A stretch of DNA of 52,319 bases. It comes from a virus (lineage: Duplodnaviria > Caudoviricetes). A model generated the notes under the pieces. That model did no database searches. It was given only the letters and a program-made list of their open reading frames with translations, and was not told the origin of the DNA. Position numbers and translations under genes: made by a program. Location of the stretch: positions 1 through 52,319 of IMG/VR virus record IMGVR_UViG_3300007539_000027. One strand, given 5' to 3'. Shown here piece after piece: positions 1-49,990 of the stretch (positions are counted from its first letter, which is position 1; the number at the start of each line of letters is the position of its first letter).

Positions 1-293
1 AGATCCTTCATCTTCTTATGAAGATCCTGTAGTTTCTCAGTCATGTCTGCAACGTGCTTCATTGCCGCTACAGCGACTTCATATGCTCTAGGGTGTCCAC
101 TCTCCTGAGCGACCTCTAAGGCACCTCTGACCGCCTCCTGACCCTGATCTATGAGGGTGTATAACTCACCCCTGGTATATTCATAGTCTTTCTGGCGATC
201 GTCATCAGTTTTCTCAACCTTTACTGGTGGTTTATCTACCACAGGTTCAGCACTGATATTGAGGATCTCCTCCATGTTCTCTTCTAGGCTCAT
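1..293 (-). CDS. gp16: Terminase small subunit (T4 gp16-like), runs off the window edge
   Basis: Not in ORF track; translated by hand from ATG at 293 (ATGA overlap with gp15 stop): MSLEENMEEILNISAE...DYEYTRGELYTLIDQGQEAVRGALEVAQESGHPRAYEV; HPRAYEV motif and position after gp15 are typical of cyanophage gp16. Confidence 0.9.
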   Translation of the reverse strand, partial: MSLEENMEEILNISAEPVVDKPPVKVEKTDDDRQKDYEYTRGELYTLIDQGQEAVRGALEVAQESGHPRAYEVAVAAMKHVADMTEKLQDLHKKMKD

Positions 294-1090
294 AAGAATT
301 CAATTCCTTCATTAAATCCAAAGTCATCTCCAGCATCAACCAGGGCATCATCATTGACATCAATGACACCATCTGAGTTGATATCTGTAACTGCTTTTGG
401 TGTGTATGTTCTTGTAATCGCTCTACGGTTGACAGATGTATCTCCAAGCGTCTCATGAATGATTGCTTTCTTAATAACATCTGAGGTGTTGTATGGACCG
501 TAGAGATATGTTTTCATTGTGAAGTTGAGAGTATAGACAATATATCTACGTTCGTAAAAACTATCATCCCACTCGTCTTCATAACTAATACCATTCAATA
601 CAATAGCAACATCTCTCTTCTCATTCATGTCTGGGATCATGTTGAGAGTGATGCTGAAAGATGGTTGGAAGTATGGTAAAATTTGCTCTGTAATTTGTAG
701 TGCATCATCCTGAGACTTTGCAATAACTCCCAATTGGAAACTTAAATTATAAGGAACAGGAACATATTGAACTCTGACTTCATCACCATTACCATCAATG
801 ATAGTTCTGTATTTTTGAATTGGTGATGTCTTACGGGTAGGATCGTAATCAATGCTCGTCATCTCAAAATAGAGACGTGGTAGAGTAATTGCTACTTTCC
901 TGTTCGTGTTGTTTTCTTCTAGACGAACAAGGAATTTCTGTTTAGGACCATATGCTAGGGGAACTTTCTGCTCCTCTAAAACAGTACCATCACTAGGATC
1001 TGTGCTCTTTAGTGTGATGTTATTAAACATCGTACCAAAAGCAACAATGTTCTTACGAACAATCTGATTGTAAAAATGTGATCCTAACAT
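290..1090 (-). CDS. gp15: Tail sheath stabilizer / tail completion protein (T4 gp15-like)
   Basis: FYNQIVRKNIVAFGTMFNNI, KVPLAYGPKQKFL, TLPRLYFEM, QITEQILPYFQP motifs; gp13-14-15-16 synteny. Confidence 0.93.
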   Translation of the reverse strand: MLGSHFYNQIVRKNIVAFGTMFNNITLKSTDPSDGTVLEEQKVPLAYGPKQKFLVRLEENNTNRKVAITLPRLYFEMTSIDYDPTRKTSPIQKYRTIIDGNGDEVRVQYVPVPYNLSFQLGVIAKSQDDALQITEQILPYFQPSFSITLNMIPDMNEKRDVAIVLNGISYEDEWDDSFYERRYIVYTLNFTMKTYLYGPYNTSDVIKKAIIHETLGDTSVNRRAITRTYTPKAVTDINSDGVIDVNDDALVDAGDDFGFNEGIEFL

Positions 1091-2214
1091 TAGATGCTAC
1101 CTGTAAAATTACCAAACTCACCAAATGGATTAGTCTCAGACCAATCCACAATGTTATCAGCATCATCTTCGATCTGTCTATTCTGATCGTAGTTGCTGTT
1201 CACATTATTTAGAGTGTCAAATGTCTCTGGAGACCACTTAGCACCAGAAGTTAGACCAGTAATTACTTCAGCAGTAGTGAAGGTTCCTGTTCTGTTGATG
1301 ACTTGGAGAGATCTGGTTGTGCTATCCCAGGACTTGACTTCTGCTCTGTTATCTTTAGGTGAGTAGTCAATAGTAACAGTAGGAGCAGTTGTATACCCAG
1401 TGCCCCCACTAGTAATAGTGATGCCATTAACAATACCAGTCGAACTAACTGTTGCAGTTGCTGTTGCACCTGTACCACCTCCTCCAGAAATAGTTACCGA
1501 TGGTGGTGTTGCTTGCTTGTAGTGCGATCCACCGTCAGTAATAGTTATGCTGGTAACAGCATCTCCTGTAATAGTAGATGTTGCTTTTGCTAGGAACTCG
1601 TCACCAACAATCTCCTCACCTACAGTAAAGTCTCCTGTTCCACCAGGATCCATAAAGAGTTTGATGGCATTGTCGAATAGTTGTTCCACTGCATCGATCT
1701 CTGCAACACCAGTATCAAAGTCGTCCTGACCGAATTCATAGATTTCAGCGGTAATGGCATAGAATTGGATCTTGCCAAACTGGAAGAATGGTTCTTCCTT
1801 ACCGACAAATTTGATCTCGTAAATATCTGTTGTAAGTGGGAAGTATAGAAGATCTCCTTCATTGGGTCTACTATCCAATGTCAGGGTGGGATTATACTGT
1901 GCTACAGCTTCATCCCATCTTCTACTAGAAACACGGAAGATAATTTCGTCTGTAATCCTTAGACCGAACTTGGAGATGAACTCTGAGTTGTCACCAAAAC
2001 CCGTGACGTTCTGCAACAGCATTTCAATCTGGAATTGTTCCTGATACTTCGAGTATCTAACTTCTTCCAGAGTGCTGTCTTGTAGAACTATCCTAGGGAT
2101 ATAGTATACGTCTGAACCAAACAATTTGATTTGCTCATCCACAAGATCCTGAATGAGACCTTGTTCGCCACTGTAACCTTGGTAGTAAGTTGGAAAGTAG
2201 GGACTGGTAGGCAT
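1090..2214 (-). CDS. gp14: Neck protein (T4 gp14-like) with inserted Gly/Thr-rich beta repeats
   Basis: EQGLIQDLVDEQIKLFGSDVYYIPR, SKFGL, RPNEGDLLYFP, EEPFFQFGK, C-terminal ETNPFG; synteny. Confidence 0.92.
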   Translation of the reverse strand: MPTSPYFPTYYQGYSGEQGLIQDLVDEQIKLFGSDVYYIPRIVLQDSTLEEVRYSKYQEQFQIEMLLQNVTGFGDNSEFISKFGLRITDEIIFRVSSRRWDEAVAQYNPTLTLDSRPNEGDLLYFPLTTDIYEIKFVGKEEPFFQFGKIQFYAITAEIYEFGQDDFDTGVAEIDAVEQLFDNAIKLFMDPGGTGDFTVGEEIVGDEFLAKATSTITGDAVTSITITDGGSHYKQATPPSVTISGGGGTGATATATVSSTGIVNGITITSGGTGYTTAPTVTIDYSPKDNRAEVKSWDSTTRSLQVINRTGTFTTAEVITGLTSGAKWSPETFDTLNNVNSNYDQNRQIEDDADNIVDWSETNPFGEFGNFTGSI

Positions 2215-2215
2215 C

Positions 2216-3016
2216 TTATCCGATCATATCCATTGGTGGGATTGCATACTTGCTGAGAACTTCGCTTTCGATTTTCTCAATTTCTGCTAGTGCGTCTGTG
2301 TAGATCTCTCTGCCGTTGAGAGTAACACCGCCAGGTAACTGGACGTTGTTATATTTGATCAAGTTCATACCCCACATCTTTTTCATGAGTGCGGTAGCAT
2401 ACTTCTTGACAAACATATCATTGTACATCTCAGTAGCATCTGTAGGATCGATAAGACGATGACACTCAATCAGGATGTTAGATCCTTCTTTGAGGAAGTC
2501 TTTATCAAGATCCATATAGAGACGATCACGACGCATGGTGTATCTGAACTGCTGGAATGATCCATTATTCAGGACCATATCCAGTGTCTCTAGATACTGC
2601 TTGTTTATAAAGTAGTTGAGGATATCAAGTGATCCGAATGCATAGAGATCATTCAGGAACAATTGATACTCAACGCCAAATAGATTAGAACGGATTGAAT
2701 TACTGACTAGACCAAATACTCTAGTGATACCGACTACGTGGTCTGGAACTGGAATATAATTAGTTGTCTCTTTCCAGTCGGTTGTACCACTAGTTGTTGT
2801 TACACTAGCAGCAAACCTTGTCTTATCGTCAGCAGTGATTTCATGGAATAGATATGCACGCTCCATACCATTGTAACAGTTCTCTTGGAAGAACTGAATG
2901 GTATCGTCAATAACATTGTTTACCTGTTCGTCGTCAATATTAACTTGGAGGACAGGCTCACCAAGCTGTCTCTTACAATATGTGATGAGTTCAGCTCTTG
3001 AATTTGGAGATGCCAT
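2216..3016 (-). CDS. gp13: Neck protein (T4 gp13-like); probable start ATG 3016
   Basis: ELITYCKRQLGEPVLQVN, KKYATALMKKMWGMNLIKYNNVQLPGGVTLNG motifs; synteny. Confidence 0.93.
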   Translation of the reverse strand: MASPNSRAELITYCKRQLGEPVLQVNIDDEQVNNVIDDTIQFFQENCYNGMERAYLFHEITADDKTRFAASVTTTSGTTDWKETTNYIPVPDHVVGITRVFGLVSNSIRSNLFGVEYQLFLNDLYAFGSLDILNYFINKQYLETLDMVLNNGSFQQFRYTMRRDRLYMDLDKDFLKEGSNILIECHRLIDPTDATEMYNDMFVKKYATALMKKMWGMNLIKYNNVQLPGGVTLNGREIYTDALAEIEKIESEVLSKYAIPPMDMIG

Positions 3017-3023
3017 TACACAC

Positions 3024-3061
3024 AAAAAATCCCTTCTTACCTATTTAGGAAGAAGGGATTT
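3024..3061 (-). terminator. Rho-independent terminator with a late-promoter-like motif in its loop
   Basis: 12-bp inverted repeat AAATCCCTTCTT (3027-3038) / AAGAAGGGATTT (3050-3061), T6 tract on the minus strand, just after the 64-aa ORF. Confidence 0.75.
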
Positions 3062-3070
3062 AGTATTTAT
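3042..3070 (-). promoter_or_regulatory. Two T4-type late promoter motifs upstream of gp13
   Basis: Minus-strand CTAAATA at 3042-3048 and ATAAATA at 3064-3070; T4 gp55 consensus is TATAAATA. Confidence 0.6.
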
Positions 3071-3261
3071 TCTTCTGAGGTTACTGGTTCTGCTTCTGGT
3101 GCTGCACCTTCGCCTTCTAGAAGTCCGAGAGTTTCGAGACCACCTTGGAGTTTAATTCTGTATTCTTTTGCTTTAGTTAGGTTTGTTTCCAGTTCGCTGA
3201 TTTGTTTATCAGTTTCAGCAATCTGATCTTCGAAGTTCTTTTTTAGTGTTGCGGGATCCAT
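3067..3261 (-). CDS. Small coiled-coil hypothetical protein (64 aa)
   Basis: Heptad-like FEDQIAETDKQISELETNLTKAKEYRIKLQG; upstream late promoter motif and downstream terminator. Confidence 0.75.
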   Translation of the reverse strand: MDPATLKKNFEDQIAETDKQISELETNLTKAKEYRIKLQGGLETLGLLEGEGAAPEAEPVTSEE

Positions 3262-3289
3262 AGTTATCAGTGCAAATGATATGTGATTA

Positions 3290-3296
3290 TATTTAT
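3290..3296 (-). promoter_or_regulatory. Late promoter motif
   Basis: Minus-strand ATAAATA about 30 nt upstream of the 64-aa ORF start. Confidence 0.55.
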
Positions 3297-4009
3297 TATC
3301 TCAAGAAAGCGTTGAATGTCAATCTATTGGTGTGCCAACCCTCCTTAGAAAAATAAGGACTATGCCACAATGCACCTTCATAGAATATAATGCTGTTGAA
3401 TTCATGTGGTTCAATGTGATATCTTTCCCACTCTTTTAATTTTACGTTAGCAGGATCGAAGGAAGTCATTGCTTGCACTTTGTTTGCAATTCTTTCTGTT
3501 CTGTAATTCCTTTCGGCAGTTACATACTCTTCCCCAGTTTCTTTAATGCGCCAGAATGCAGTTCCATTTGGTATCTCGTGATCATAGTCATCATCTTCAT
3601 TGAATGACAATACAGAAGCATATCTAACGTAGTCTGAGTGTGGATACAAACTCATAAACCTTACTTTATCCTGAGGATCATACATTTGCAAAGTAAAATT
3701 GCTTTGCTCTGGATGTCTCAGTAGATCATCACTAGCAGTGAAGTAATGCTTACAGGCAAATCTCACAGGAGAATACAATTGATTTCTATAGTTTCCAATC
3801 TGGTGAAGATATCCAGGTAGATTGGTAACTTGTCCTTTTGTGGTGTCAACATAGTCTACAGACTTAGCAAACAACTTAAGTTGTTCTGGGTTTACAAACC
3901 AATTCTTAATAATGACAAGTTTGTTCTTAAAATTGCCAATATGTTTTTCTTCAACCTCCCAGTGTTGAGGGTGGTTTACCTCAAATAATTGAGGATCAAT
4001 TACTTTCAT
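3296..4009 (-). CDS. 2OG-Fe(II) oxygenase-like protein (DUF6445-like)
   Basis: HxD (PHSD), GTAFWR, FNSIIFYEGALWHSP distal His, terminal RLTFNAF Arg; start ATG 4009 or GTG 4012. Confidence 0.72.
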   Translation of the reverse strand: MKVIDPQLFEVNHPQHWEVEEKHIGNFKNKLVIIKNWFVNPEQLKLFAKSVDYVDTTKGQVTNLPGYLHQIGNYRNQLYSPVRFACKHYFTASDDLLRHPEQSNFTLQMYDPQDKVRFMSLYPHSDYVRYASVLSFNEDDDYDHEIPNGTAFWRIKETGEEYVTAERNYRTERIANKVQAMTSFDPANVKLKEWERYHIEPHEFNSIIFYEGALWHSPYFSKEGWHTNRLTFNAFLR

Positions 4010-4712
4010 CACAAACTCCTATCTTAATTCTGTATGGTCCTGTAGTAACAATGTCGGGACAAGCATTCATAGCTAGCGTAATTCTTTCTTCGCTATAGTC
4101 ATTCTTTACCTGATTGAACCCATGGTATAAACCAGATTGCCAAATAAGTAAAGTTCCTTCTTGTGCATTAGTTGCAATAGTTGGAACTGTGTATGGTGTA
4201 TGATTTTCTGTGTTAATAGAAAATGCTGGATGTGTACCATTGGGTCTGAATGGATTGCAAAATTGTAAGGGAGTATGTTCCTCTTTAAAATTTACAAAAT
4301 AATTACAAGCAAGAATACAATTACCATGGAAGTGTTGGTCTAACCAATTTCCTTTTCGTGTAACGTTAATCCAACTATTTGTAATTAACATCTCATTATA
4401 TTCTGCTTTACCAAAGGTGTCAACAAAGAAAGAGTTTAAACATGTTTTGGTAAACAACTCAAAGTCTCTAATAGCTTCTTGAAATTCTGGTTCTTTTACA
4501 TTTCTAAAAATGTCTTGATCATATGAATTAAAGAAGTGTTGGATGCCACCTTGATCTTCTGGCATCTCATACTTAGTGTCACTATATTTTTGGATAATTT
4601 CGTATACTACCTTTTTCCATTCTTTATGGTGTGGATATTCGTAGAGACCTATTGGTACTACGAATAGATCCATAATTTGAGACTTGATTTTTTCCGCTGA
4701 TTTAATCTTCAT
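3996..4712 (-). CDS. Putative 2OG-Fe(II) oxygenase (TIGR02466-like); probable start ATG 4712
   Basis: SWINVTRKGNWLDQHFHGNC (HxH), EGTLLIWQSGLYHG, ERITLAMN. Confidence 0.8.
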   Translation of the reverse strand: MKIKSAEKIKSQIMDLFVVPIGLYEYPHHKEWKKVVYEIIQKYSDTKYEMPEDQGGIQHFFNSYDQDIFRNVKEPEFQEAIRDFELFTKTCLNSFFVDTFGKAEYNEMLITNSWINVTRKGNWLDQHFHGNCILACNYFVNFKEEHTPLQFCNPFRPNGTHPAFSINTENHTPYTVPTIATNAQEGTLLIWQSGLYHGFNQVKNDYSEERITLAMNACPDIVTTGPYRIKIGVCDESN

Positions 4713-6432
4713 TTGTTTTTTCAAGAACCATGATATAAACACCATTCCACCAATGGTGTGGATTTTCAATGACACCGCTTAGAAGTTTACGTTCGAAGTA
4801 AACATCCAACTTGTTCTCTGATACAAACTGAATAGCACTTTCGACAACACCATCAAAGTTAGCATCATCAATAACTAGAATAAACTTGTCTGCCAAGAAA
4901 GGAAGTACATGATTTAGATTATTGAGTTGCTCAACATAATCATGGTTAGCATCATAGAAAATGACATTGGGTTTCTTACCTTCAAAATCTTCTTCTTTAA
5001 GATCCTTAATCGATGTGCCAATGAACGTGGTTTCTCCATTCTCATACTTATCAAAGTTAACTTTGAATTCTTCTAGAGGATTGCCACATTCTGTCCAGTA
5101 CACATTTTTAGTCATTGGTTGACAGTTTGGTTCTGAAAAATTATCTACACCAAAACAAGGGATATTATTATCCATGATAGCAGCAAAGAATGTACTGCCC
5201 ATGTAAGTGCCTAGTTCTAGATAGACAGAATTATCATAAGAACAAAGATTATTAAGAAGGTGTCTTACTCTAGGAGAACTCAAACCTCGTGCAGAATATA
5301 CCTCTGGTCTAAACTTAGATTTATTTTTCAGAGCATCATCAATCGCATCCATAGAACGCTGAGTATACTCTTCAATGTTATCTGTTTCTCCTTTTTTCTT
5401 GAGGGAAGAATCTACTACTGCTTCACAATAGTGACAATCCCAACAATCAAACTTACATGTTTTGATCTTTTCTCTCCAGAGATTGATGGGAGCATCTTTG
5501 ACCTCTAGGTCATCCATATAATCGTCAAACTCTGGGAACAAAAGATCTTCTTTTCTTGCCCAACGTTCAATGATATCCATGCTTTCTTTCAAACGCATAG
5601 AGTTTTCTCTGCCATGCATTTTGAAAACATCAATACCTAGATCAAGAAACTCTTCCCAATCTTCACGCCACGGTGGCAAGTTTGCAGACTTTAGAGCAGA
5701 AGCATTATCTTCAATGTCCCACTTAGAACAAGAATTTGTACTAATGGGATCCATGAAGTATTGTGGTGCCTGATTTCCTCTGGTGTTATTGAAATGGTAG
5801 TGCTCATCCATCATAGAGCAACCACCCCAACATCCTTCATTTGCAAGGATAGATAGCTCTACTGGTTTACCAATCTCGGCACAGTATTCTTTTGCTCTCT
5901 TGATCTCCAGAAGCGCATTTCTATCTCGCATCAGATCTCTATCCAGATTGATGTAATGGAACCCCGCCTTAGCGAGAGATACAATCTCATTTGCTTTGGT
6001 TACGTTTCTGAGAATTGTGTTCTTGATTTTCAGTTCTGGGAATTCTTTTTGCAAGATGCCAGTAGCAACCCAACTGGTGTGTGGAATTGTAGCAATCTTC
6101 ACTCCCATTTCATAGACAGCACGGAAGTTGTGTACGAACAAATCCAGTGTCTCTAGGTCAGGGCGAACGTAAATGTTATTGAACGTTGCTGACAGAGGCA
6201 ACTCTGCTTCTCTGGCGATTACAATTGCATTGTAGAGTAGTTGCCTGGTGTCTCCATTGAAAACGTCACCCATTGCATCTTGCTCAAATGGGGGCATTCT
6301 ACAGGTAAAATACAGGTCTTTAACAAAACCTCTATATTTCATCAACCAAGGAATGACAACAGAATCTACAAAGATTTTATCAAGCTTGGGATTTATTGGG
6401 AGACTGAATACGGAGTTTTTCACTTGTGACAT
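4702..6432 (-). CDS. Fusion of a U32-family (Fe-S, 'peptidase U32') domain and a class I SAM-dependent methyltransferase (Methyltransf_24-like)
   Basis: N-part: YINLDRDLMRD, ELSILANEGCWGGC, SCSKW, LGIDVFKMHGRE, plus CKFDCWDCHYC; C-part: YLELGTYMGST, GVDNF, IFYDANHDY, LVIDDANF. Confidence 0.75.
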   Translation of the reverse strand: MSQVKNSVFSLPINPKLDKIFVDSVVIPWLMKYRGFVKDLYFTCRMPPFEQDAMGDVFNGDTRQLLYNAIVIAREAELPLSATFNNIYVRPDLETLDLFVHNFRAVYEMGVKIATIPHTSWVATGILQKEFPELKIKNTILRNVTKANEIVSLAKAGFHYINLDRDLMRDRNALLEIKRAKEYCAEIGKPVELSILANEGCWGGCSMMDEHYHFNNTRGNQAPQYFMDPISTNSCSKWDIEDNASALKSANLPPWREDWEEFLDLGIDVFKMHGRENSMRLKESMDIIERWARKEDLLFPEFDDYMDDLEVKDAPINLWREKIKTCKFDCWDCHYCEAVVDSSLKKKGETDNIEEYTQRSMDAIDDALKNKSKFRPEVYSARGLSSPRVRHLLNNLCSYDNSVYLELGTYMGSTFFAAIMDNNIPCFGVDNFSEPNCQPMTKNVYWTECGNPLEEFKVNFDKYENGETTFIGTSIKDLKEEDFEGKKPNVIFYDANHDYVEQLNNLNHVLPFLADKFILVIDDANFDGVVESAIQFVSENKLDVYFERKLLSGVIENPHHWWNGVYIMVLEKTNED

Positions 6433-7204
6433 TTTTTACCTCAGGAAGTTTTAATGGTTCGTTTGATAGTTGTTCTCCTAGAAGAGTTGGAAGTGCGACA
6501 TCATCATATGCTCCTTCCATAATTTTTCTCACTTCAGGAAGCATACGTTGCTGCATTTTTTCAATGCCTGCAGTCAATAGTGTAGCATGTTCCACAGCAC
6601 CACGGATAGCAGAAATCTGATCTTCCTTGGGCATGTTAAGAATGGAATCTAGATTACCACTACCTAGTCTTCCAATAGCATGTACATCAACAGCAGCTTG
6701 TTTTGCCATTCTAGCAATCCAATACTGCCTGTCTTCATGTTCCTGGGTCAGTCGATAGTATTCCATATCGACACCTTCATCCATATGTTCACGAACGATG
6801 TCACAAAACTCAGAGATTTCTCTTTCTACTGTGACAAATTTTCTTTCGTAAACAGTGAGATCATAATTTTTTCTTTCCAGTTCAATCTCTAGTCTTTCAA
6901 TCTCCAGGTCATCTGGATTTTCGAGAGACTTTTCAAGCTTCAGAGATCTTTCTAGTCTTTTCTTATCATTCAAGCACAGTTTGTATTTGTAATGAAGTTC
7001 GACATCAACTTGATGTCTTGTTTCCAGTTCAAGCAACGCCTGTTGAACTTTTTTGTACGGCGTTACTTGGGATCCAACAACAAACGTGTTATTCTGATAG
7101 CGTGTTTGTCCTTGCTGCAGGTGAATAGCAGCTTGGATAATTTGATCGTTTGAAATATTATCTTTGGTTAGTGCTACTAGTTCACTAGAATCCGAAGGTT
7201 CCAT
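6380..7204 (-). CDS. Hypothetical helical/coiled-coil protein (274 aa)
   Basis: Long ORF overlapping both neighbours; charged heptads; QTRYQNNTFVVGSQVTPYKKVQQALLELETR. Confidence 0.75.
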   Translation of the reverse strand: MEPSDSSELVALTKDNISNDQIIQAAIHLQQGQTRYQNNTFVVGSQVTPYKKVQQALLELETRHQVDVELHYKYKLCLNDKKRLERSLKLEKSLENPDDLEIERLEIELERKNYDLTVYERKFVTVEREISEFCDIVREHMDEGVDMEYYRLTQEHEDRQYWIARMAKQAAVDVHAIGRLGSGNLDSILNMPKEDQISAIRGAVEHATLLTAGIEKMQQRMLPEVRKIMEGAYDDVALPTLLGEQLSNEPLKLPEVKNVTSEKLRIQSPNKSQA

Positions 7205-8129
7205 ACTTTACTTCATCCCCAATGCGGTTGTAATTAGAATCACAACGCCCCATTTTCTCTGCTTGAATGAATGGCATTCCAACGTTCAAGTAATCCTCAT
7301 AGAGGATGTTCATATCCCACATGTTATCACAATGTTTGAATTGAGATTTAATAGCGTGATACTTACCGAGCAATGCGGCGTATTCCAATACATATTTATC
7401 ATGGTTCTTGATGACCTTTTTCGCAAGAACCGTCTTATCAATACCTCTAGTTACTGCTAGAATATTGAGAAATGGTGTAGACGCATCGGGATTTTTTAGT
7501 AGTTCTTTTGCTTCGGGAACTTGATACGCCCAAGATTCTTGTTCTACATCATGGCAGTTTTTGAAGTTCTTGAAACGAAGTTCAAATTCTCTTTCGATGA
7601 CTAGAATTGCCATCTTCTTCATGAAGATCAAAGCATTATCGATCTTCGATTGGGTCATGGGGTTTTTTACTTTTTGATACTTGATTTCCCCATCATCATT
7701 CATGTATCCTTCGTAGTCCTTTGAGTAAGACCTAATTTCACCTTGATAGTTGATACCATCATGTAGTTCTTTTGGAGTAAATTCGATATATCTTTTTAGT
7801 CCAGACTTAAGAGTATCGAATACATCTCTCTTCATTCTGACTACAGAAATGTTGAAGAAAGTAAAAACATTAATGAAAGTTGTTTCGTGCTGCTTCAATT
7901 CCATAGCACGAAGGTCTTCTTGACAAAGACCCATGAGGACATCGCCCTTTTGTACTTCTTTTCTATCTTTAATATATTTTTTAACTTCTAACTCAAGAGG
8001 ATGTTGTGGTTTATACTCTGGAATAACCAGATCACCATCCGTAATCATTTGAGTTGGAATTTTTGTTGGAATACTCTCTTTCCATGCAAGATCCCAAGGC
8101 TTCTCGTCGATAAGAATTTTCTTTTTCAT
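7185..8129 (-). CDS. Hypothetical protein with tail-fibre assembly chaperone-like C-terminal half; probable start ATG 8129
   Basis: TGATG overlap with upstream stop; EQESWAYQVPEA...TPFLNILAVTRGIDKTVLAKKV...YAALLGK resembles phage fibre-assembly proteins. Confidence 0.55.
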   Translation of the reverse strand: MKKKILIDEKPWDLAWKESIPTKIPTQMITDGDLVIPEYKPQHPLELEVKKYIKDRKEVQKGDVLMGLCQEDLRAMELKQHETTFINVFTFFNISVVRMKRDVFDTLKSGLKRYIEFTPKELHDGINYQGEIRSYSKDYEGYMNDDGEIKYQKVKNPMTQSKIDNALIFMKKMAILVIEREFELRFKNFKNCHDVEQESWAYQVPEAKELLKNPDASTPFLNILAVTRGIDKTVLAKKVIKNHDKYVLEYAALLGKYHAIKSQFKHCDNMWDMNILYEDYLNVGMPFIQAEKMGRCDSNYNRIGDEVKYGTFGF

Positions 8130-9523
8130 CACTGATATCTGGTAGAGGTTACAGTAAATGCGCCAGTGTGACAAGTACCAGAGGATTGACCCTGGTGTCC
8201 TTTAGGTTCTGTTTTAAATCCACACATAACAAAACTATCGTTTGAATGGAAGATCTTAAATGTTCTGTTGTTTTGACGAGCGTTACCAGAACCACCAGAA
8301 CCAGAATAGTTACCTACACAATAACCCCAGTCCTGTCCCATTTCCATGTTTTCTTCACCAGAAGCAACATCAGTCTGATTAAAGTTAGAAATTCTACTTC
8401 CAGTATTATGGGTAAACTTCATCCACTGCTGAGTTACGTTGCCACCATTTCCGTGGTAACCAACGTTCCACTTAGTAGATAGCGATTTTTTCCAACCATC
8501 ACCACCGATATTCGTTGTGGACCAGTTACCAGTAGATTCTGTAGCAAATTCAATGTATCTTGAGTTACTTGTGTCACCATAAGAATAACCTCTGTTTTCA
8601 CCCTCAGTAGCAGATGCGTGGTTGTTACCATGACCTCCGCTAACTCTTGACATAATCTCAGACATAAAGTTTAGTCTATTCCAAGACTGAGAACCTAGGT
8701 CACCACCACCAGTAACGTATCCTCTTTGTGTGGTCTGACCAGATACTGCACCAGGGTCATCGCACGATGCATAAAGGTCCCAGGTAGCACCAATGCTATC
8801 AGGTGTGGTAGAATAGTTATCAGTGTGGTTGTAGTCAGGAGATGAACCAGCAGTTCTGCCTGTTCCCGTGTGCAAGTTAATAGAAGAGGTGTGTGGGGAG
8901 TTACTACCCCAACCGTTGTTACCACCATAAACATAACCGTTGTAGTCACTAAAGTTACCATCAACGTATGTTGCTGCTCTGTCTAGTTGGTCACCACGAC
9001 AAATAGTAACGTCTGTTGCGTGGAATGTTTGGTTGACAGTTCTCCATGGGTTAGCACCACGATATCCTCCACACAAGAAACCATGAGTGAAGATACTTCT
9101 GTATTTAAATTCGGAACCAATCGTAATGTTATAAGTGTTGCCACCACTGTCAATCCATTGTCCTTGACCAGAGAATGGTAGATATCCACTGGAAGGAGTA
9201 GATGGGTTTTGTAGGTTAGTGTTAAAACTTGGTGCGTTATCTCCAGTAGTAGCACCACCAGCAGGCATTGATGAAGTGCCGCTAGGGTTACCACCTACAA
9301 ATGCAGCAGTGGGTGATGCCCAGTATGCTGTTTGTCCATCAGAGAACAACTGTGATCCAGCAGTCTCTATTGATTGTTCTGGAAGCGAAGCGAATGGCTG
9401 ACCATTTCTAAGCAGACTACCAGTGAAATTAATATCACCAGTAATATTGGCACCGACCTCAATGTCGATTGATCCAGCACCAGCTATATTGGTAATGTTA
9501 TCTACCCTAATTTTGGACGCCAT
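8129..9523 (-). CDS. Virion structural / fibre-tip protein with probable beta-propeller C-terminal domain
   Basis: N-term MASKIRVDNITN; Gly/Ser/Asn-rich; repeated blade-like units THGFLCGG, YNGYVYGG, RGYVTGG, RGYSYG, VGYHGNG, WGYCVG. Confidence 0.6.
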   Translation of the reverse strand: MASKIRVDNITNIAGAGSIDIEVGANITGDINFTGSLLRNGQPFASLPEQSIETAGSQLFSDGQTAYWASPTAAFVGGNPSGTSSMPAGGATTGDNAPSFNTNLQNPSTPSSGYLPFSGQGQWIDSGGNTYNITIGSEFKYRSIFTHGFLCGGYRGANPWRTVNQTFHATDVTICRGDQLDRAATYVDGNFSDYNGYVYGGNNGWGSNSPHTSSINLHTGTGRTAGSSPDYNHTDNYSTTPDSIGATWDLYASCDDPGAVSGQTTQRGYVTGGGDLGSQSWNRLNFMSEIMSRVSGGHGNNHASATEGENRGYSYGDTSNSRYIEFATESTGNWSTTNIGGDGWKKSLSTKWNVGYHGNGGNVTQQWMKFTHNTGSRISNFNQTDVASGEENMEMGQDWGYCVGNYSGSGGSGNARQNNRTFKIFHSNDSFVMCGFKTEPKGHQGQSSGTCHTGAFTVTSTRYQ

Positions 9524-9544: not shown

Positions 9545-9889
9545 TTAATTATTTAGACGGTCAACAACCTCTTTATACTCGGTCAACAACTCCAAATACT
9601 GATCTTCTGTCAGCGACGTTCCTTCTTTCAATCCTGCTGCAACGAACTCTTTGTCAATAATATGACTTTCGATACTTGCTTTTAAGATAGATTCGGATCT
9701 AAGATCTGTTCCTGCTTGTTTTGCAGTTTTAACAGCACTTGGTTGTTCGTAGTCAACAATAATTCTACCTTCATCAATAACTAATTGTTCTACATGAAGT
9801 ACATTATATTCTTGAGCACCAACAGGAGCATATTCTAAAACTGGTGTAGTGATGATAGCATTATCATCGATCCATGCGTATAATTTCAT
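9545..9889 (-). CDS. Small hypothetical protein, possible fibre assembly chaperone; probable start ATG 9889
   Basis: TAATG overlap with upstream stop; acidic 114-aa protein directly after a fibre-like gene. Confidence 0.5.
   Translation of the reverse strand: MKLYAWIDDNAIITTPVLEYAPVGAQEYNVLHVEQLVIDEGRIIVDYEQPSAVKTAKQAGTDLRSESILKASIESHIIDKEFVAAGLKEGTSLTEDQYLELLTEYKEVVDRLNN
9550..9556 (-). promoter_or_regulatory. Late promoter motif
   Basis: Minus-strand CTAAATA about 27 nt upstream of ATG 9523. Confidence 0.55.
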
Positions 9890-10626
9890 TATGCTACTCT
9901 CCTTACCCAAAAACGTTTGTTGTCACCGTTGAATGCGTGATATCCAATCCAATCCCAGTTTCTACTGTTGTTAGTCCACTTGTTATAACCAATAACAAGA
10001 GATGAAGTATCACTACCAACATAGTACATGTATTTATTTGTAGGACCAGTGGTAAACCAAACTTTACCAGCAGGGTCAGCACCAGATCCTCCAAAGAAGT
10101 GGTCAAAGTAAAAATGACTTAGAGTTTGGTCAGCTCTGTTAAAGTTTGCAGAACCATCTGTTGCTCTATAGTGTGCTCTAAATTCGCTACCATAGGTAGA
10201 ACCATTTGGGTAGAGATACAAGTCAACGTTGGAAGCACCACCTGAAGATGTATACCACATCTCATACACAGCATTAGGCACGAGACCAGTTCTCATGTAC
10301 ATATCGTTGTTACTACTATAATAGTAGTGAACATCATTAAAGTTCTCAAGTAGAAGTAGGGGTTCACTAGAACCAGGGTCACCACGTTCAATAATATTTT
10401 GACCGCCGCCCTTGCCAATCTCTGCCCAAGTACCATTATAGTAGAAGTCTACCCATCCTTCATCGTTAATACCTACAGTACCCTCCTGTGGATTTGAAGG
10501 TCTATTGGAACTAGTCCAATGATTGACCTTCAATCTTCCTGGTGTGGTATCTAGTGTATTGCCACTGTAGAGATGGATATCATCATCTGCAAGACCTCTC
10601 AGTTCTTGCACACGTAAAATACTCAT
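9889..10626 (-). CDS. Virion structural / fibre-tip protein (245 aa)
   Basis: N-term MSILRVQELRG and WTSSNRPSNPQEGTVGIN...FYYNGTW joint motif typical of cyanophage fibre proteins; aromatic-rich C-terminal domain. Confidence 0.6.
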   Translation of the reverse strand: MSILRVQELRGLADDDIHLYSGNTLDTTPGRLKVNHWTSSNRPSNPQEGTVGINDEGWVDFYYNGTWAEIGKGGGQNIIERGDPGSSEPLLLLENFNDVHYYYSSNNDMYMRTGLVPNAVYEMWYTSSGGASNVDLYLYPNGSTYGSEFRAHYRATDGSANFNRADQTLSHFYFDHFFGGSGADPAGKVWFTTGPTNKYMYYVGSDTSSLVIGYNKWTNNSRNWDWIGYHAFNGDNKRFWVRRVA

Positions 10627-10652: not shown

Positions 10653-10659
10653 TATTTAG
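10653..10659 (-). promoter_or_regulatory. Late promoter motif overlapping fibre stop codon
   Basis: Minus-strand CTAAATA about 27 nt upstream of ATG 10626. Confidence 0.55.
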
Positions 10660-13600
10660 ATGATCACGAAGGTGCTGGAATTTCCGACCGTTACGGTTAC
10701 CCCGTTAGCAATTTCTAGATCACCACACGCAAATGCGTTAGTGTTTGCTGGAACTGTGATACTCTCATTGAGAGAGTTTGGATTACTCTTGATAACACCG
10801 TAAGTATCCAACCATTGAGCAGCACCGTTAGCACGTAGTTTTCCAGTGACATTGATATCACCAGTGACTTCTAGTTCGTATTGTGGGTCAGCGCCATTGA
10901 TACCGACCTTAGATAGTCTGTAAATGTCAGTGCCATTAGTTGCTTCAGTCCATCTAGAAGTTACGAACTCTGCGTTGTTCTGGAATAGTTGACCATTGAA
11001 GTTAACGTCACCCTGAACATTGAGTTGATAGTTTCTAGTGATGTTTGCACCATCAGTTGTATCAACACCAGAGAAAGCAGAAGTGTTGATTGCAACTCTA
11101 TTGGTAGTACCCTTGATTGCAAGAGCTGGTGTTGCTTGATAAGTAGCAGCACCAGAACCGTCAGTTGCGTTGATCGCAAATACGTCATCTGCAATAACTT
11201 GGTTGGTGAGACGGAAGTTAGATAGATGACCACCAGAGTAAGATCCACCAGTTGCACCTTGTAGATATAGATAAGCTCCAGTGTTAGTGGTGCCTCTATT
11301 AACTGCCATGTACTCGGTGGCATGTACTTCGTCAGCATGGAGTTTATCCCATCTTACTGTTGAAGTTCCTAGTTCACCATAACCATCTTGCTTAGGAATT
11401 AACTGACCAGTTCCTTTAACGATCAGTACAGTGTTAGCAGTTGCTGCTGGAGCTTCTGCAACAAAGTAGAACGATGCTTGATCACTACCACTGATATCCT
11501 TCTTATACGCAATTCTACCGTCTGCGCTTTCAGCACGGAAGTCAAGAGCAGCAAATGTATTTGCGTCGCTGTTGGTATTTTGAATTAGAGCACCAGCAGA
11601 AGTTCCTGCTGCCATTCCAATTACGTCAGCAGCAACATCAGTTTCTGTAGAAGCATAACTTACATGCAGTGGGCGTTTTGCATTTGCTTGTGAAGTTCCA
11701 ATACCAACTCTGTCGTTGGTGTAGTCAACAGTAAATACGTTACCGTCAACATTGAGGTTGCGAGCAAATGCAACTTCTCTCTGAACTGTTAGTGTACCCT
11801 CAACATAGAGGTTTGAAGTTGGGTCAGTTGGACCACCAGAGTTAAGGATGTTCAGCGTTCCAGTCATGCTGTCGCCAGCTTTCAGAACGTTGAGTGATGC
11901 AGCACCAATTACTTGACCAGGAATACCATTGCCATCAGCAACTAGTGTGATATCATGTGCTTCAAAACTTCCAGTTGCATCACGCATAACAGCGTTTCTG
12001 ATGCTTGGGTTTCCTAGTGCATCATAGACGGTTGCACCATTAGCAGAAGTGAATACTGTGTTTCCTTCATGCCATGCAGGACTATTATTAACAGTAAATG
12101 AATTATTACTACCTACAATAATGTTTAGAGAACCACTGCCATCAGCAGCAGTACCACCAGAAGCAACAATTGCAGAGTTGTAGTTAGGAGCAAACTGCTG
12201 AGAAGAACTGAAGTAGATACCAGGAGATGTACCTGTATTAGCAGCAATTCTTCTACCAAGTCTTAGGTTTGCTGTACCAGAATCAACTTCAAGAGATGCA
12301 GCAGCATATGTATTGCTATCCGCAAGAGCATAGTCAGTCCATGCAGCATACTTAGTAACTGCATTAGAAGATGCAAGACCTAGTTGATATGAACCAGCAA
12401 ATCCACCAGTCAATAGAACTGCGGTTATAATTGTAAAATTGTTGGATGCATCTTGTGTGTCCTGTTGTGGATCTCTGTTGGTAATGTACATTGTGCCCAA
12501 TGCCTGAGCACCAGTAACATCGTAGATGTTGACCTGCTTACCACTATCAAAGATACCTCCATATTGAGAATCGTTTAGCAGAACACCATCAAATAGAATT
12601 TGATATGCTTTCTTACCAGATAGTAGAGAGTTACCAGATTGTGCTAGTGGTTCTTTAATTTCAATCTTAGTATCAAATGCCTTCTCTGACATGAAAGAAG
12701 GAAGTCTGCTATCAAAGAACTCACCTTCGTTAGTGTGAACAGCATTTCTATACCAAGCAGCAGTCTTATTCTTAAGTCTATAAGCGTCTGGTCCTTCAGG
12801 TCTTCCTGAGGAAGCGTCGTTACCAGATGTCCAAACTTTATTCCAATCACCAAACTGCGATACACCAAAACCAGTACCACGAAGGTAAATATTGGCTCTT
12901 TCATCATTACCAGTATCTGGGAGTGCAAGTTGCTTAATACCACCATATGAAGTATCAAGGTCAATACCGCCAGGTCTGATAGTTAGAAGTGCGTGCTTAC
13001 CAGAGTTACCTGTAGTAGCGTTCTGCAGTCCTACCTCAGGCCATTCTTGATATAGATTAGTAACGTTGTTGAACTTGTTCTCTACTGTCAAACCTGCGCT
13101 ATACAGGTTAGGAGCAGAGTTCGTTACGTCACCGCTAGTATCAGAAGTAATTAGTTTTGCCGATGTAGCAGTGCCTTCAATATCAATCTTATATTCTCCA
13201 CTTAGTCTATTCTTAGGAAGAGTACCTTTGATTTGGTTACTGGAATCTTGGTAGAATTCACCATCTCTTCCAGCAGATCCTAGGAATTCTGCAATCAGAC
13301 CAGATCCAGCACCAGTCTTGAGCGTGACGGATCCGTTTCCGTCTGCTCCGACAATAAACTGTGCCTTCTTAAGTCTTACAACACCAACTGTTCCATACTC
13401 ATCAATAGAACCTGTAGATCCTTCTCCACCTGCTCTAGCAACGTCAATAGAGACGTTTGCAAACTGCTTGGAAACAGTGGATCTTTTTGCTACAAGTTGA
13501 AGATTATTACCATTGCCAATTTCTGGTGGATCTTGCGAGATTGTAAAGTCTGTATCATAACCAGTACCAGGAGAAGTAACAGTTACTTTAGTAACTACGC

Positions 13601-48573: not shown

Positions 48574-48789
48574 TCACTGATGCCAACGCTCTACAAAGTC
48601 ATCAAATCCACCAGCACCACCACAAGGGCGCTCTAGACGATCTTCGGGTAGTGGATATAGTTCTTCCCTTTTCTTTGCTTCACGTTGCTTTCTAGCAAGA
48701 TCTAGATAACGATCAGCATCGGTTTCAGTAATAAGGGTCATCCCTTCATCAATAAAGTTTTGTCCTTTATCAACTCTGCTGTTGCCCAT
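48574..48789 (-). CDS. Hypothetical protein (71 aa)
   Basis: ORF filling the gap before gp25, overlapping the upstream gene end. Confidence 0.65.
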   Translation of the reverse strand: MGNSRVDKGQNFIDEGMTLITETDADRYLDLARKQREAKKREELYPLPEDRLERPCGGAGGFDDFVERWHQ

Positions 48790-49435: not shown

Positions 49436-49986
49436 AACAACTCTGTCCAACCTGTAATAATCATTTTCTCATTCTCTGGATCTACTCTAGATTTATGAGT
49501 AAACATCCACTCTGCTGGCCAGATTAACGTTTTGCCTCTCTCCGCAGGAATATTCAAATCCTGATAAAGAAACTGGGTTCCCCCATCTGGATTATCAGTG
49601 AGATATGTCATCCATACAAGATGGCGATATACTGCACCCTTCCTACCAGTGCGTTCAAAGTGCCACGTCTTATATCCTCCCCCTGGTTCATAATGTTGAA
49701 TATTAAACTTGGGTGATATACGACTAGGCATTGATGACTTACGGTACGTCTTGTGATACTTCTCAATAAGACTATCTAAACAATTCAGATAATCTTTGAT
49801 ACGATTATCAAAGTCAGCATAAGAGGTATGCACAGTCATATCCATTGACTGCTTCACTGCATCGTTAGTTCTTGGAGCATCTCTGTCGCCCCCTATAACG
49901 CCTGGTTTTGCACTATAGTTATCGTTGTGGTAGAAGAAGTCCACAACGCCGTCACAGACGCTTAGAGGGACCTCTCCTGCCATCAT
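49432..49986 (-). CDS. 2OG-Fe(II) oxygenase (prolyl-hydroxylase-like); probable start ATG 49986
   Basis: NIQHYEPGGGYKTWHFE (HxE), LVWMTYL, GGTQF, GKTLIWPAEWMFTH, KMIITGW. Confidence 0.85.
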   Translation of the reverse strand: MMAGEVPLSVCDGVVDFFYHNDNYSAKPGVIGGDRDAPRTNDAVKQSMDMTVHTSYADFDNRIKDYLNCLDSLIEKYHKTYRKSSMPSRISPKFNIQHYEPGGGYKTWHFERTGRKGAVYRHLVWMTYLTDNPDGGTQFLYQDLNIPAERGKTLIWPAEWMFTHKSRVDPENEKMIITGWTELL

Positions 49987-49990
49987 AAAC

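Follow-up and report, generated by a model that had tools for sequence, protein, structure and literature searches.

Peptidase U32 Fe-S hydroxylases (PF01136: UbiU/UbiV, TrhP, RlhA; fold of Mk0906, 5d88) work independently of O2 and are built on a TIM-type barrel, and their four-Cys motif, CX6CX15CX3/4C, binds a [4Fe-4S] cluster according to the available part of PMC6747719. Prephenate-dependent hydroxylation is another trait of this family. The characterised U32-type enzymes covered in the available parts of PMC6747719 and PMC6599085 all act on RNA or quinones, and none of them acts on proteins. In B. subtilis, the trmR-trhP2-trhP1 genes for mo5U34 synthesis supply both a U32-type hydroxylase and a class I O-methyltransferase (PMC6599085, available part). 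Radical SAM/SPASM maturation sets (anSME, DynA-type RiPP) follow another arrangement, in which the substrate protein is encoded beside the tailoring enzymes. In phages, tail-fibre tip genes form pairs with downstream assembly-chaperone genes, as in T4 gp37/gp38 and the Tfa-type pairs.

The locus described here has features of each of these systems. It lies in a DNA stretch of 52,319 nucleotides from a marine virus of cyanobacteria (IMGVR_UViG_3300007539_000027, Caudoviricetes; the window in what follows). As in the T4 and Tfa-type pairs, small genes stand directly after a fibre-tip gene in their own late unit. The fourth gene encodes a predicted TIM-type barrel, the fold common to the U32 enzymes, and joins it to an O-methyltransferase-like domain in one polypeptide, where B. 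subtilis has separate proteins. With the radical SAM/SPASM sets, the locus may share the logic of encoding a substrate protein next to its tailoring enzymes.

Layout of the Gene Block

Six tightly packed genes occupy positions 3296-9523 on the minus strand, followed by a 64-aa ORF at 3067-3261 on the same strand. All the ORFs that had been listed earlier as six overlapping genes were recovered at these positions, and every junction overlapped. From the 464-aa to the 238-aa gene, the successive overlaps were 1 nt (TGATG), 20 nt, 53 nt, at least 11 nt, and 14-17 nt. The features of the block are as follows:

9550..9556, minus strand: CTAAATA, late-promoter-like motif, 27 nt 5' of the ATG of the 464-aa gene
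8129..9523, minus strand: 464-aa fibre-type protein (phrog_1417, E 3e-107)
7185..8129, minus strand: 314-aa helical protein (phrog_1604, E 8e-70; ATG at 8129)
6380..7204, minus strand: 274-aa coiled-coil protein (phrog_1409, E 1e-72)
4702-6432, minus strand: 576-aa enzyme, whole gene, barrel fused to methyltransferase
5398..6432, minus strand: predicted Cys-rich TIM-type barrel, aa 1-345, from the structure model; CX3CX2CX2C (aa 326-336) at its end
4702..5310, minus strand: class I O-methyltransferase-like domain, aa 375-576, from PF13578 and the predicted fold
3996..4712, minus strand: 2OG-Fe(II) oxygenase, add-on (PF13759, E 1.4e-11; phrog_81, E 1e-34)
3296..4012, minus strand: DUF6445 protein, 238 aa, HxD...H...R pattern, frequent add-on (PF20043, E 7e-15; phrog_1644)
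3290..3296, minus strand: ATAAATA, second late-promoter-like motif, 29 nt 5' of the 64-aa ORF
3067..3261, minus strand: 64-aa coiled-coil ORF (phrog_580, E 2e-18)
3022..3070, minus strand: intrinsic-terminator-like hairpin and U run closing the unit before gp13, from folding energy against shuffles

The block had been placed behind one late promoter motif at 9550. The motif was present there but it was not the sole one, as ATAAATA at 3290-3296 precedes the 64-aa ORF. We take CTAAATA and ATAAATA to be cyanophage late-promoter forms. CTAAATA occurred 9 times in the window against a shuffle mean of 9.8, which is not above chance, and all 9 copies of CTAAATA and all 9 of ATAAATA lay on the coding strand, several of them just 5' of gene starts.

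The 64-aa ORF and the terminator reported before were both found. The hairpin 3' of this ORF had a folding energy of -19.5 kcal/mol (z -5.56; 0 of 200 shuffles folded as well) and is followed by the U run, while a simple terminator scan did not pick up 3022..3070. The membership of the ORF in the cassette is doubtful, as it has its own promoter-like motif and elsewhere lies beside gp13, kilobases from the enzyme gene. In some loci, among them L020 and L060, it comes after the DUF6445 gene, and in the group L066-L082 it is mostly directly 5' of gp13, as far as 3.4 kb away from the enzyme gene; L074 is the exception in this group, with the ORF directly after the enzyme gene.

Conservation of the Core Genes and Late Expression of Their P-HM2 Homologues

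To describe the conserved part of the cassette, its genes were compared across IMG/VR loci carrying the 576-aa enzyme gene. The genes of the 464-aa propeller protein and of both helper proteins (314/329 and 274 aa) accompanied the enzyme gene in 44 of the 44 loci with more than 4.6 kb of DNA 5' of it. Grouped by enzyme identity, the loci formed 27 clusters at 95% and 14 at 80%, and since they come from related phages they represent far fewer than 44 independent events. The gene of the 274-aa protein was the constant neighbour of the enzyme gene, being found in 73 of 73 loci with at least 900 nt upstream. On the other side, 43 of 69 loci had a DUF6445 gene within 900 nt 3' of the enzyme gene, while 12 of 69 had a 2OG-Fe(II) oxygenase gene directly 3' of it, so both are optional add-ons. 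The cassette is thus a fixed core of four genes and not one fixed six-gene unit; the co-occurrence expected of the module held for the core and did not extend to the DUF6445 and 2OG-Fe(II) oxygenase genes.

Among cultured phages, P-HM2, Syn19, S-CAM4 and P-SSM4 carry the cassette. The P-HM2 homologues of the four core genes are PHM2_098-101, of which PHM2_098 is classed as Late (E) and PHM2_099, 100 and 101 as Late (D) (PMC5082946, supplement file 6). These published data bear out late expression for the homologues of all four core genes.

The set also occurs in distant phages. In L050 it lies beside two tryptophan-halogenase-type genes and two 2OG oxygenase genes, and in L054 among collagen-like fibres. 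In the Ralstonia jumbo phage RP12, a collagen-like fibre gene occurs with a 292-aa propeller, a 158-aa ORF, a protein of phrog_1409 and a barrel that lacks the methyltransferase. RP12, L050 and L054 have an extra gene for a DUF401/CitMHS-like membrane protein; Pfam and PHROG annotation showed no such transporter-type gene in the cassette of this window.

The two add-on genes were also characterised. The oxygenase ORF is 259 aa when read from GTG 4775 (3996-4775), and the PHROG match begins at residue 22, where there is an ATG (4712). This protein belongs to 2OG-FeII_Oxy_5 (PF13759, 45.1 bits against a cut-off of 27), while TIGR02466 scored below its cut-off. In the DUF6445 protein, a candidate member of the 2OG-Fe(II) oxygenase superfamily, the HxD...H triad and the Arg (H125, D127, H217 and R230) were conserved in 31 sequences. 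An hhalign comparison with the 259-aa family aligned only the C-terminal His/Arg stretch, at a probability of 0.2%, and a search against PDB sequences gave no match.

The Propeller Fibre Protein and Its Helpers

The 464-aa protein has the fibre motif INFTGSLLRNG at aa 31-41, a low-confidence linker, and a predicted six-bladed Kelch-type beta-propeller at about aa 140-457 (pLDDT about 70-88 over aa 140-457). The model of aa 142-457 matched the KLHL17 Kelch domain (6hrl) with Z 28.2 and an rmsd of 2.7 over 275 aligned residues, followed by 2vpj (Z 27.4) and 6fmp (Z 27.1). The Pfam Kelch profiles did not detect it, and no Pfam family matched at E ≤10. The fibre motif matched aa 3041-3051 of a 3106-aa fibre (15 aa, 67% identity, E 0.018). 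In L064, L075 and L076, giant fibre ORFs (frames of more than 2,800 aa, open at the locus start) have the propeller as their C-terminal end, which supports the fibre link proposed earlier; proteins of 646-684 aa end in it in L066, L068 and L071. The Kelch propeller is likely to be a receptor-binding tip.

The helical protein has an alternative start at TTG 8174, which would give 329 aa (7185-8174), and its conserved part is the C-terminal ~170 aa. Its gene stands directly after the tip gene, in the position of a fibre assembly factor, and the protein had been called a chaperone on the earlier reading. No Pfam or NCBIfam family, and hence no chaperone family, was matched; the only matches were PHROGs of unknown function, and a weak Atlas lead, PF27318, covered 21% of one cluster (score 0.90). 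The position after the tip gene is therefore what the name rests on. The 274-aa protein shares its PHROG with ORF140 of RP12 (E 9e-69), which is encoded directly 5' of the barrel gene, and its invariant residues include W162, R165, K168, Q169, G183 and N184. Unlike the T4 gp37/gp38 and Tfa-type pairs, this set always includes an enzyme, and its helpers match no chaperone family.

The Barrel of the 576-aa Enzyme

In an alignment of 20 sequences, down to 45% identity, seven cysteines of the barrel were invariant: C201, C205, C235, C326, C330, C333 and C336. Their spacing is C201-x3-C205-x29-C235 and C326-x3-C330-x2-C333-x2-C336, so that the barrel has CX3CX29C plus a C-terminal CX3CX2CX2C instead of the U32 motif. 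A search for the U32 four-Cys motif in the barrel ended with its rejection, as only the CX3C half aligned.

The best fold match was the U32 protein Mk0906 (5d88), with Z 14.6 and an rmsd of 4.8 over 213 of 247 residues. Other TIM barrels followed closely (MTHFR Z 13.4 and 13.2, SfnG 12.9, pyruvate kinase 12.8), and 5d88 was only about 1 Z above MTHFR. When the barrel was aligned by hhalign with six true U32 proteins, 190 columns were in register at E 0.0028 and a probability of 10.9%; the segment N-E-G-C-x3-C fell on cysteines three and four of the U32 motif, and KMHGRE was matched to the KIEGR stretch of U32.

Profile searches gave no such likeness. PF01136 matched nothing at E ≤10 in the 576-aa enzyme and nothing in six frames of the window. 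Remote homologues numbered 656 as representatives at 50% identity, from phages and anaerobic bacteria; 150 were listed, and PF01136 was found in 0 of the 30 scanned. In five genomes with cellular barrel relatives, PF01136 found six other genes and missed the barrel relatives. The barrel half matched no Pfam or NCBIfam family, and its family has no model in either. The earlier label "U32" therefore did not stand, as it had no Pfam support. The claim of three enzymes predicted to hydroxylate or methylate was broadly borne out, with Methyltransf_24, 2OG-FeII_Oxy_5 and DUF6445 domains found. The structural and alignment data weakly suggest that the barrel may be a very distant, unannotated relative of U32.

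The Methyltransferase Half and the Possible Chemistry of the Enzyme

PF13578 (Methyltransf_24) matched aa 405-523 with 30.8 bits against a cut-off of 26.3. The best folds were MeT1 (6g7d, Z 16.5), an O-methyltransferase (8c9v, Z 15.8) and TrmR (5zw3, Z 15.5), with N- and C-methyltransferases within 1-2 Z of the best O-methyltransferase folds. In the same 20 sequences, E406, G408, G412, D430, D494, D522, D523 and N525 were invariant. These residues may correspond to the COMT-type motifs, in which a Gly-rich stretch binds SAM and Asp/Asp/Asn residues hold the metal.

It might be argued that the 576-aa protein serves mainly in the assembly or structure of the propeller fibre, as an enzyme scaffold put to a new use and making no covalent modification. 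It always occurs with the fibre-tip gene and two proteins encoded where fibre chaperones usually are, and no product of the enzyme is known. However, neither the seven cysteines nor the methyltransferase motif residues vary in sequences down to 45% identity, the Cys motifs persist in cellular relatives that have no fibre gene, and RP12 retains only the barrel. These observations indicate conserved chemistry and argue against the scaffold reading, which we consider improbable.

The TrmR match, within 1 Z of the best one, raises a second alternative. According to the available part of PMC6599085, trmR-trhP2-trhP1 is the only characterised pair of U32 hydroxylase and O-methyltransferase, and a hydroxylase-trmR fusion exists in some eukaryotes. 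The enzyme could thus be a phage version of TrhP plus TrmR, by which a pyrimidine in tRNA or rRNA would be hydroxylated and O-methylated (ho5U to mo5U, or ho5C), tuning late translation, and the fibre location would be an accident of cassette insertion. This is very improbable in our view. In contrast to the B. subtilis genes, the late phage gene is tied to fibre genes, with strict linkage to the propeller and helical proteins over the 14 clusters and RP12; Pfam detected neither an RNA-binding domain in the enzyme nor relatedness to either B. subtilis protein, and there is no tRNA gene in the window. In addition, the five searched genomes with a cellular barrel relative also have a true U32 gene elsewhere, and the genes around the cellular barrels do not form RNA-modification operons.

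Cellular Relatives of the Barrel

The gene contexts of cellular barrel relatives are new in this analysis. In 11 of 11 cellular loci (L088-L098) the barrel occurred without fibre genes, and the relatives keep the barrel Cys motifs. Barrel genes in L090, L091 and L095 had radical SAM/SPASM neighbours, nearest to anSME, DynA and TIGR04083 and scoring below every NCBIfam cut-off. In L095 the barrel gene adjoins a DUF6445 gene, of the same family as the phage 238-aa gene. In L090, two barrel genes flank the radical SAM gene, and these paired paralogues recall the UbiU-UbiV heterodimer described in the available part of PMC6747719. An HlyB-type type I secretion set lies near the barrel in L092, and in L097 and L098 a sulfotransferase, an ATP-grasp gene, PAPS-synthesis genes and a giant GLUG-repeat protein were found. 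L093 (Hydrogenimonas) has type III CRISPR genes adjoining the barrel and no peptide-maturation genes in view, and L088 has a family 5 solute-binding protein and a Methyltransf_2 enzyme. The annotated neighbours were mostly protein- or peptide-processing genes. Since cellular barrels stand beside radical SAM/SPASM maturases, DUF6445, type I exporter or sulfotransferase genes, their contexts point to a protein or peptide substrate. Unlike the radical SAM/SPASM sets, the phage cassette has no radical SAM gene, and no leader or core peptide was identified in it.

Some of these data fit a small-molecule substrate as well, namely the DUF401/CitMHS-like protein, the halogenases of L050 and the neighbours of L088. 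The barrel would then hydroxylate a small aromatic molecule, the methyltransferase would methylate it, and relatives would halogenate it; the product would be a cofactor, ligand or signal bound by the propeller or acting in the infected cell, and the fibre linkage would mean that the genes are co-regulated or that the fibre uses the product. The nearest folds include small-molecule and sugar O-methyltransferases (MeT1, SpnH with Z 14.8, and the CCoAOMT type with about 14), the two halogenase genes of L050 are of the tryptophan-halogenase family, and UbiU plus UbiV hydroxylate quinone rings (PMC6747719, available part). On the other hand, the constant partners are non-enzymatic proteins and not further pathway enzymes, the transporter-like gene is absent from the cassette of this window, and in several cellular loci the barrel lies in a maturation set for proteins or peptides. 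We regard a small-molecule substrate as rather unlikely.

Proposed Function

Gene order, co-occurrence, late transcription in P-HM2, predicted folds and invariant catalytic-type residues together lead us to propose, tentatively and at a little less than even confidence, that the region is a late-expressed, fibre-linked protein-tailoring module; both the chemistry and the choice of a module protein as substrate are inferred. A short fibre protein with a Kelch propeller end would be produced along with a two-domain enzyme and two helical proteins that belong to no known family. The Cys-rich barrel of this enzyme would add a hydroxyl to a side chain, most likely an aromatic one, in the propeller tip or in one helical partner from the same block, and the fused O-methyltransferase would then methylate the new hydroxyl. 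The DUF6445 protein and the 2OG-Fe(II) oxygenase may be optional extra hydroxylases in this phage. In the literature examined, we found no modified residue and no virion mass spectrometry for a cassette-bearing phage; the virion proteomes of Sullivan 2010 (Table S8, as read) are those of S-SM1, S-PM2 and Syn9, all without T4-GC 351-354. Other points against the proposal are the RNA and quinone substrates of characterised U32-type enzymes, the weakness of the U32 link, the data that suit a small molecule equally well, the CRISPR setting of L093, and the sub-threshold scores of the radical SAM neighbours.

A wider version of this proposal is that phages tailor their own receptor-binding apparatus. 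An Fe-S barrel of an unnamed, distantly U32-like family would hydroxylate an aromatic residue of the propeller tip or its partner, the O-methyltransferase would cap the hydroxyl, and the halogenases and 2OG oxygenases of relatives would decorate it further, while in Campylobacterales and Smithella the same family would act in this way on peptides and proteins that are secreted or lie at the surface. We consider this version unlikely as a whole. If true, a U32-type hydroxylase would for the first time have a protein substrate, and a phage fibre would for the first time be seen to have its side chains tailored by an enzyme. If the fibre protein is modified, a large unannotated enzyme family would gain a function, and host recognition by abundant ocean cyanophages would depend on chemistry that is unreadable from the fibre sequence, with consequences for predicting host range and for interpreting how fibres evolve.

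Gene Order and Expression of the Cassette

The window belongs to a T4-like cyanomyophage, and its features that bear on the cassette are the following:

290-3025: genes of gp15, gp14, and gp13
3067-9523, minus strand: the cassette
4395-4423, minus strand: perfect sigma-70 consensus (TTGACA, 17 nt, TATAAT; 12/12) within the 259-aa oxygenase gene
9545-10626, minus strand: two small genes (121 aa and 245 aa) between the giant fibre gene and the cassette
10656-19976: gene of a 3106-aa fibre
48773-50097, minus strand, among baseplate genes: a 226-aa protein without Pfam family that matches phrog_3704 ('ferredoxin'; E 6e-115), and a 2OG-FeII_Oxy_3 oxygenase
Remainder: giant structural and baseplate genes

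The closest named relatives of the 576-aa enzyme were found in the Synechococcus phages S-CAM4 and ACG-2014j (74% identity), and 126 phage records, 123 of cyanophages and 3 of Ralstonia phages, encode relatives of it. No near-identical DNA to the region was detected by megablast among 50,697 phage records, from which the records of the window's own genome were possibly excluded. The 245-aa protein begins with a fibre-like N-terminus and shares 30-38% identity with the protein at the position of an S-CAM4 gene annotated as virion structural protein; relatives of the 121-aa and 245-aa genes were confined to the closest loci.

The earlier note had placed seven ORFs in the cassette, and all of them were recovered at the same coordinates on the minus strand, with an overlap at every junction of the six larger genes. 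The terminator said to close the unit was also present, as a hairpin that folds at -19.5 kcal/mol (z -5.56) and is followed by a U run. As for the single late promoter motif claimed at 9550, the heptamer CTAAATA does stand 27 nt upstream of the first (464-aa) gene, but a second such motif precedes the 64-aa ORF. CTAAATA was not over-represented in the window (9 found, 9.8 expected), and all 9 copies of it, like all 9 copies of ATAAATA, lie on the coding strand. We take these heptamers to be late promoters; the paper that was searched for them does not name them. The exact T4 late-promoter consensus TATAAATA has just two copies in the window, both distant from the cassette.

The homologues of the core genes in phage P-HM2 are PHM2_098-101. 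In the data of Thompson et al. (2016; PMC5082946, supplement file 6), both columns assign Late (E) to PHM2_098 and Late (D) to PHM2_099, 100, and 101, which agrees with the late expression proposed earlier, the timing being that of one relative. The sigma-70 consensus at 4395-4423 stands ~380 nt upstream of the DUF6445 gene and, going by its sequence, could allow a separate, earlier expression of the last genes of the block.

Four Genes Form the Fixed Core

Every stop-to-stop frame of the loci was scanned with HMMs derived from our own alignments. More than 4.6 kb of DNA upstream of the enzyme gene was available in 44 of the 80 IMG/VR loci, and the propeller, 314-aa, and 274-aa families were all present in every one of them (44/44). 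The core order was that of the window in 38 of these loci, while the two helpers were swapped in 6. The 44 loci correspond to 27 clusters at 95% and 14 at 80% enzyme identity, and, as they come from related phages, they do not count as 44 independent events. The 274-aa family adjoined the enzyme gene in 73/73 loci with at least 900 nt upstream.

Downstream of the enzyme gene the content was variable. Among the 69 loci with enough downstream DNA, DUF6445 lay within 900 nt in 43, and a relative of the 259-aa oxygenase followed directly in 12; in phage P-SSM4, the next gene is denV. These results indicated that the unit consists of four fixed genes plus variable oxygenases. The six-gene cassette described before is thus retained for its four core genes, but not for DUF6445 and the second oxygenase. 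The 64-aa ORF, which had been counted in the cassette, follows DUF6445 in some loci, but in most of the L066-L082 group of phage loci it immediately precedes gp13, as much as 3.4 kb away from the enzyme gene.

The Propeller Protein and Its Partners Are Probably Linked to Fibres

The 464-aa protein has no Pfam family. Its model shows a six-bladed Kelch propeller (pLDDT ~70-88 over aa 140-457), with KLHL17 as the best fold match (Z 28.2, rmsd 2.7, 275 residues aligned). Its N-terminal motif INFTGSLLRNG recurs close to the C-terminus of the 3106-aa fibre. Furthermore, the propeller terminates proteins of 646-684 aa in three phage loci (L066, L068, and L071), and in three others (L064, L075, and L076) giant ORFs that are open at the locus start have it at their C-terminal end. 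The 464-aa protein is read as a putative fibre tip. The 314/329-aa and 274-aa proteins are helical members of PHROGs of unknown function and matched no Pfam and no NCBIfam family. In the ESM Atlas, no usable match came up for the 274-aa protein, and the 314-aa protein had just a weak lead. A YebC match of the 274-aa protein (19 bits against an NCBIfam cut-off of 209) was taken as chance.

The module was also found in distant phages. In the Ralstonia jumbo phage RP12, a collagen-like fibre gene is followed by a 292-aa ORF, a 158-aa ORF, a phrog_1409 protein (E 9e-69), a barrel without methyltransferase, and a DUF401/CitMHS-like membrane protein. The 292-aa ORF matched the propeller profile by hhalign (E 0.0012), and in BFVD an RP12 protein of 292 aa matched our propeller model (E 3.7e-12, TM 0.72). 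The distant IMG/VR locus L050 carries two added tryptophan-halogenase-family genes directly after the enzyme gene (L050:11685-14830; PF04820, E 6e-96 and 1e-25), and behind these two 2OG oxygenases and then a DUF401-like membrane protein. In another phage locus, L054, the module lies among collagen-like fibres.

The Barrel Loosely Resembles U32 Proteins but Is Filed Outside the Family

In the model of the 576-aa enzyme (mean pLDDT 78), aa 1-~300 form a TIM-type barrel and aa 375-576 a Rossmann methyltransferase, joined by a helical linker; confidence is low in the Cys-bearing loop 201-250. The methyltransferase half scored above the Pfam Methyltransf_24 cut-off, and its nearest folds are the O-methyltransferases MeT1 (Z 16.5), 8c9v (Z 15.8), and TrmR (Z 15.5). 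The enzyme could act on RNA, as TrmR and the U32 hydroxylase TrhP do, a reading that we consider highly improbable. No PDB entry fell below E 1 in sequence and profile searches with the enzyme, where three rows at E 1.4-1.9 were taken as chance, and Foldseek on the whole model returned two-domain look-alikes (PRMT5, pyruvate kinase) and methyltransferases, which were uninformative on the barrel. The shorter proteins recovered with the barrel half were mainly contig-end fragments, plus a few of ~305 aa, and in none of them did a Pfam family cover the barrel. NCBIfam assigned no family to the eight barrel proteins examined, nor to the four core proteins. A ~20-codon extension beyond the enzyme stop in two phage loci (L068:9977-11740 and L071:9983-11755) was rejected; the true end is the stop at residue 568 or 571, and recoding is unneeded.

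The enzyme had been labelled a U32-methyltransferase. The best fold match of the barrel was indeed the U32 protein Mk0906 (5d88; Z 14.6, 213 residues aligned), but MTHFR followed closely at Z 13.4. Profile-profile comparison with six true U32 proteins, taken from genomes that also hold cellular barrel relatives, gave E 0.0028 and a probability of 10.9% with 190 columns in register; the N-E-G-C-x3-C motif of the barrel fell on the last two cysteines of the U32 proteins, and its KMHGRE on their KIEGR. In contrast, the U32 family model PF01136 had no match in the 576-aa protein, even at E up to 10, and none in the six-frame translation of the window or in the 30 remote homologues scanned (150 listed, 656 found). 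It was also without a match at the loci of the cellular barrel relatives, while the true U32 genes of the same five genomes were found elsewhere. Moreover, the U32 cysteine motif is given as CX6CX15CX3/4C (PMC6747719), and the barrel instead has CX3CX29C plus a C-terminal CX3CX2CX2C. Because these PF01136 negatives and the replaced cysteine motif stand against a loose likeness of fold and profile, the barrel was filed outside the U32 family, as an unnamed Fe-S-type barrel family that may act like a U32 hydroxylase, and the earlier label was dropped. All seven barrel cysteines are invariant. A non-catalytic role in assembly appears distinctly improbable.

Most Annotated Cellular Relatives Occur Beside Probable Protein or Peptide Processing Genes

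A scan of one genome per species yielded 14 loci (L085-L098). In three of them (L085-L087) the phage module is complete, and these resemble phage DNA that ended up in metagenome bins. The other 11 (L088-L098), from six Campylobacterales, three Smithella/Syntrophaceae, one Cloacimonadota bin, and one unclassified bacterial bin, all encode the barrel alone (~350 aa), without methyltransferase or fibre partner. Neighbours were annotated by Pfam for nine of these loci, and L094 and L096 were compared by ORF sizes; the sizes and order in L094 match L092.

Neighbours of the barrel gene at cellular loci annotated by Pfam
L088: family 5 solute-binding protein and Methyltransf_2 O-methyltransferase
L089: dCTP-deaminase-like gene
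L090: second barrel paralogue (39% identity to enzyme aa 78-343) and radical SAM/SPASM enzyme
L091: a pair of radical SAM enzymes, a SPASM domain being present in one
L092: outer-membrane factor, HlyB-type type I secretion ABC protein (892 bits, cut-off 725), HlyD, M23 peptidase
L093: type III CRISPR csm genes
L095: TPR protein, 300-aa Cys protein, DUF6445 protein, radical SAM/SPASM enzyme
L097, L098: giant GLUG-repeat protein, sulfotransferase, ATP-grasp enzyme, 258-aa Cys protein, TauE, CysD-/CysNC-type genes

For the radical SAM enzymes, the nearest families were anaerobic sulfatase maturase, DynA, and one that modifies peptides, and no score reached its curated cut-off. The DUF6445 protein of L095 (E 2e-22) shares 26% identity with the 238-aa protein of the window, so that cellular contexts tie DUF6445 to the barrel outside phages. 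Four hhalign tests of the 274-aa protein or the barrel against unknown neighbours of the cellular barrel genes gave probabilities of at most 0.2%.

Most of these contexts point to the processing of proteins or peptides that leave the cell, and a protein substrate is therefore, by analogy, the more likely reading for the phage enzyme. L088, L089, and L093 fall outside this picture. A small aromatic molecule as the substrate is rather unlikely in our estimate.

Several proteins beside the cellular barrels had features of their own. The 258/259-aa protein adjoining the barrel in the Smithella/Syntrophaceae MAGs of L098 (11181-11957) and L097 (8744-9517) has no Pfam and no NCBIfam family and carries N-A-G-C-x3-C-x4-C, which resembles the N-E-G-C-x3-C of the barrel; it may be a second, shorter barrel paralogue, by analogy with the UbiU/UbiV pair. 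In the Campylobacterales MAGs, ~295-aa proteins just upstream of the barrel (L091:9108-9983 and L095:1722-2621; 28% mutual identity) end in CSMCE-x-Y-x2-C, one with a weak SPASM-domain match (E 2.4e-4). In the Hydrogenimonas MAG (L093:4261-11059), a 355-aa barrel relative stands directly behind a csm row (Cas6, Cas10, Csm2, and RAMP proteins) on the same strand, and may be a CRISPR accessory gene or mere chance.

Relation to Previous Work and Proposed Function

In the tables of Sullivan et al. (2010; PMC3037559), the core genes are T4-GC 351-354, one 'similar to sericin 1 precursor' and three hypotheticals, present in P-SSM4, P-HM2, and a few other columns. The virion proteomes in Table S8 of that paper, which we read by their unique gene clusters as those of S-SM1, S-PM2, and Syn9, are silent on the module either way, since none of these three phages carries T4-GC 351-354 there. 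In the Syn19 evolution experiment, the five mutated positions listed for the first population lie outside the cassette homologues (PMC6224464, Supplementary Table 5), which was uninformative. A full-text search with four of the module's locus tags found no paper naming them, nor did keyword searches find one on the module, judged by title and abstract among the matches listed. This analysis added the negative tests of U32 membership in genomes where true U32 genes occur, a profile-profile test, the cysteine-motif comparison, dereplicated co-occurrence counts, and the cellular contexts.

The anatomy, linkage, predicted folds, and residue conservation of the module, and its timing in one relative, were shown; the reaction and the substrate are what we infer. 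The scheme as a whole, late protein tailoring by hydroxylation and then O-methylation, is plausible, although we stop short of calling it probable. A late transcript would supply the enzyme together with a propeller-tipped fibre protein and the two helical partners of that protein. The barrel would hydroxylate a side chain, probably an aromatic one, of one of the module proteins, and the fused O-methyltransferase would methylate the new hydroxyl, while DUF6445 and the 2OG oxygenase would contribute optional added hydroxylations.
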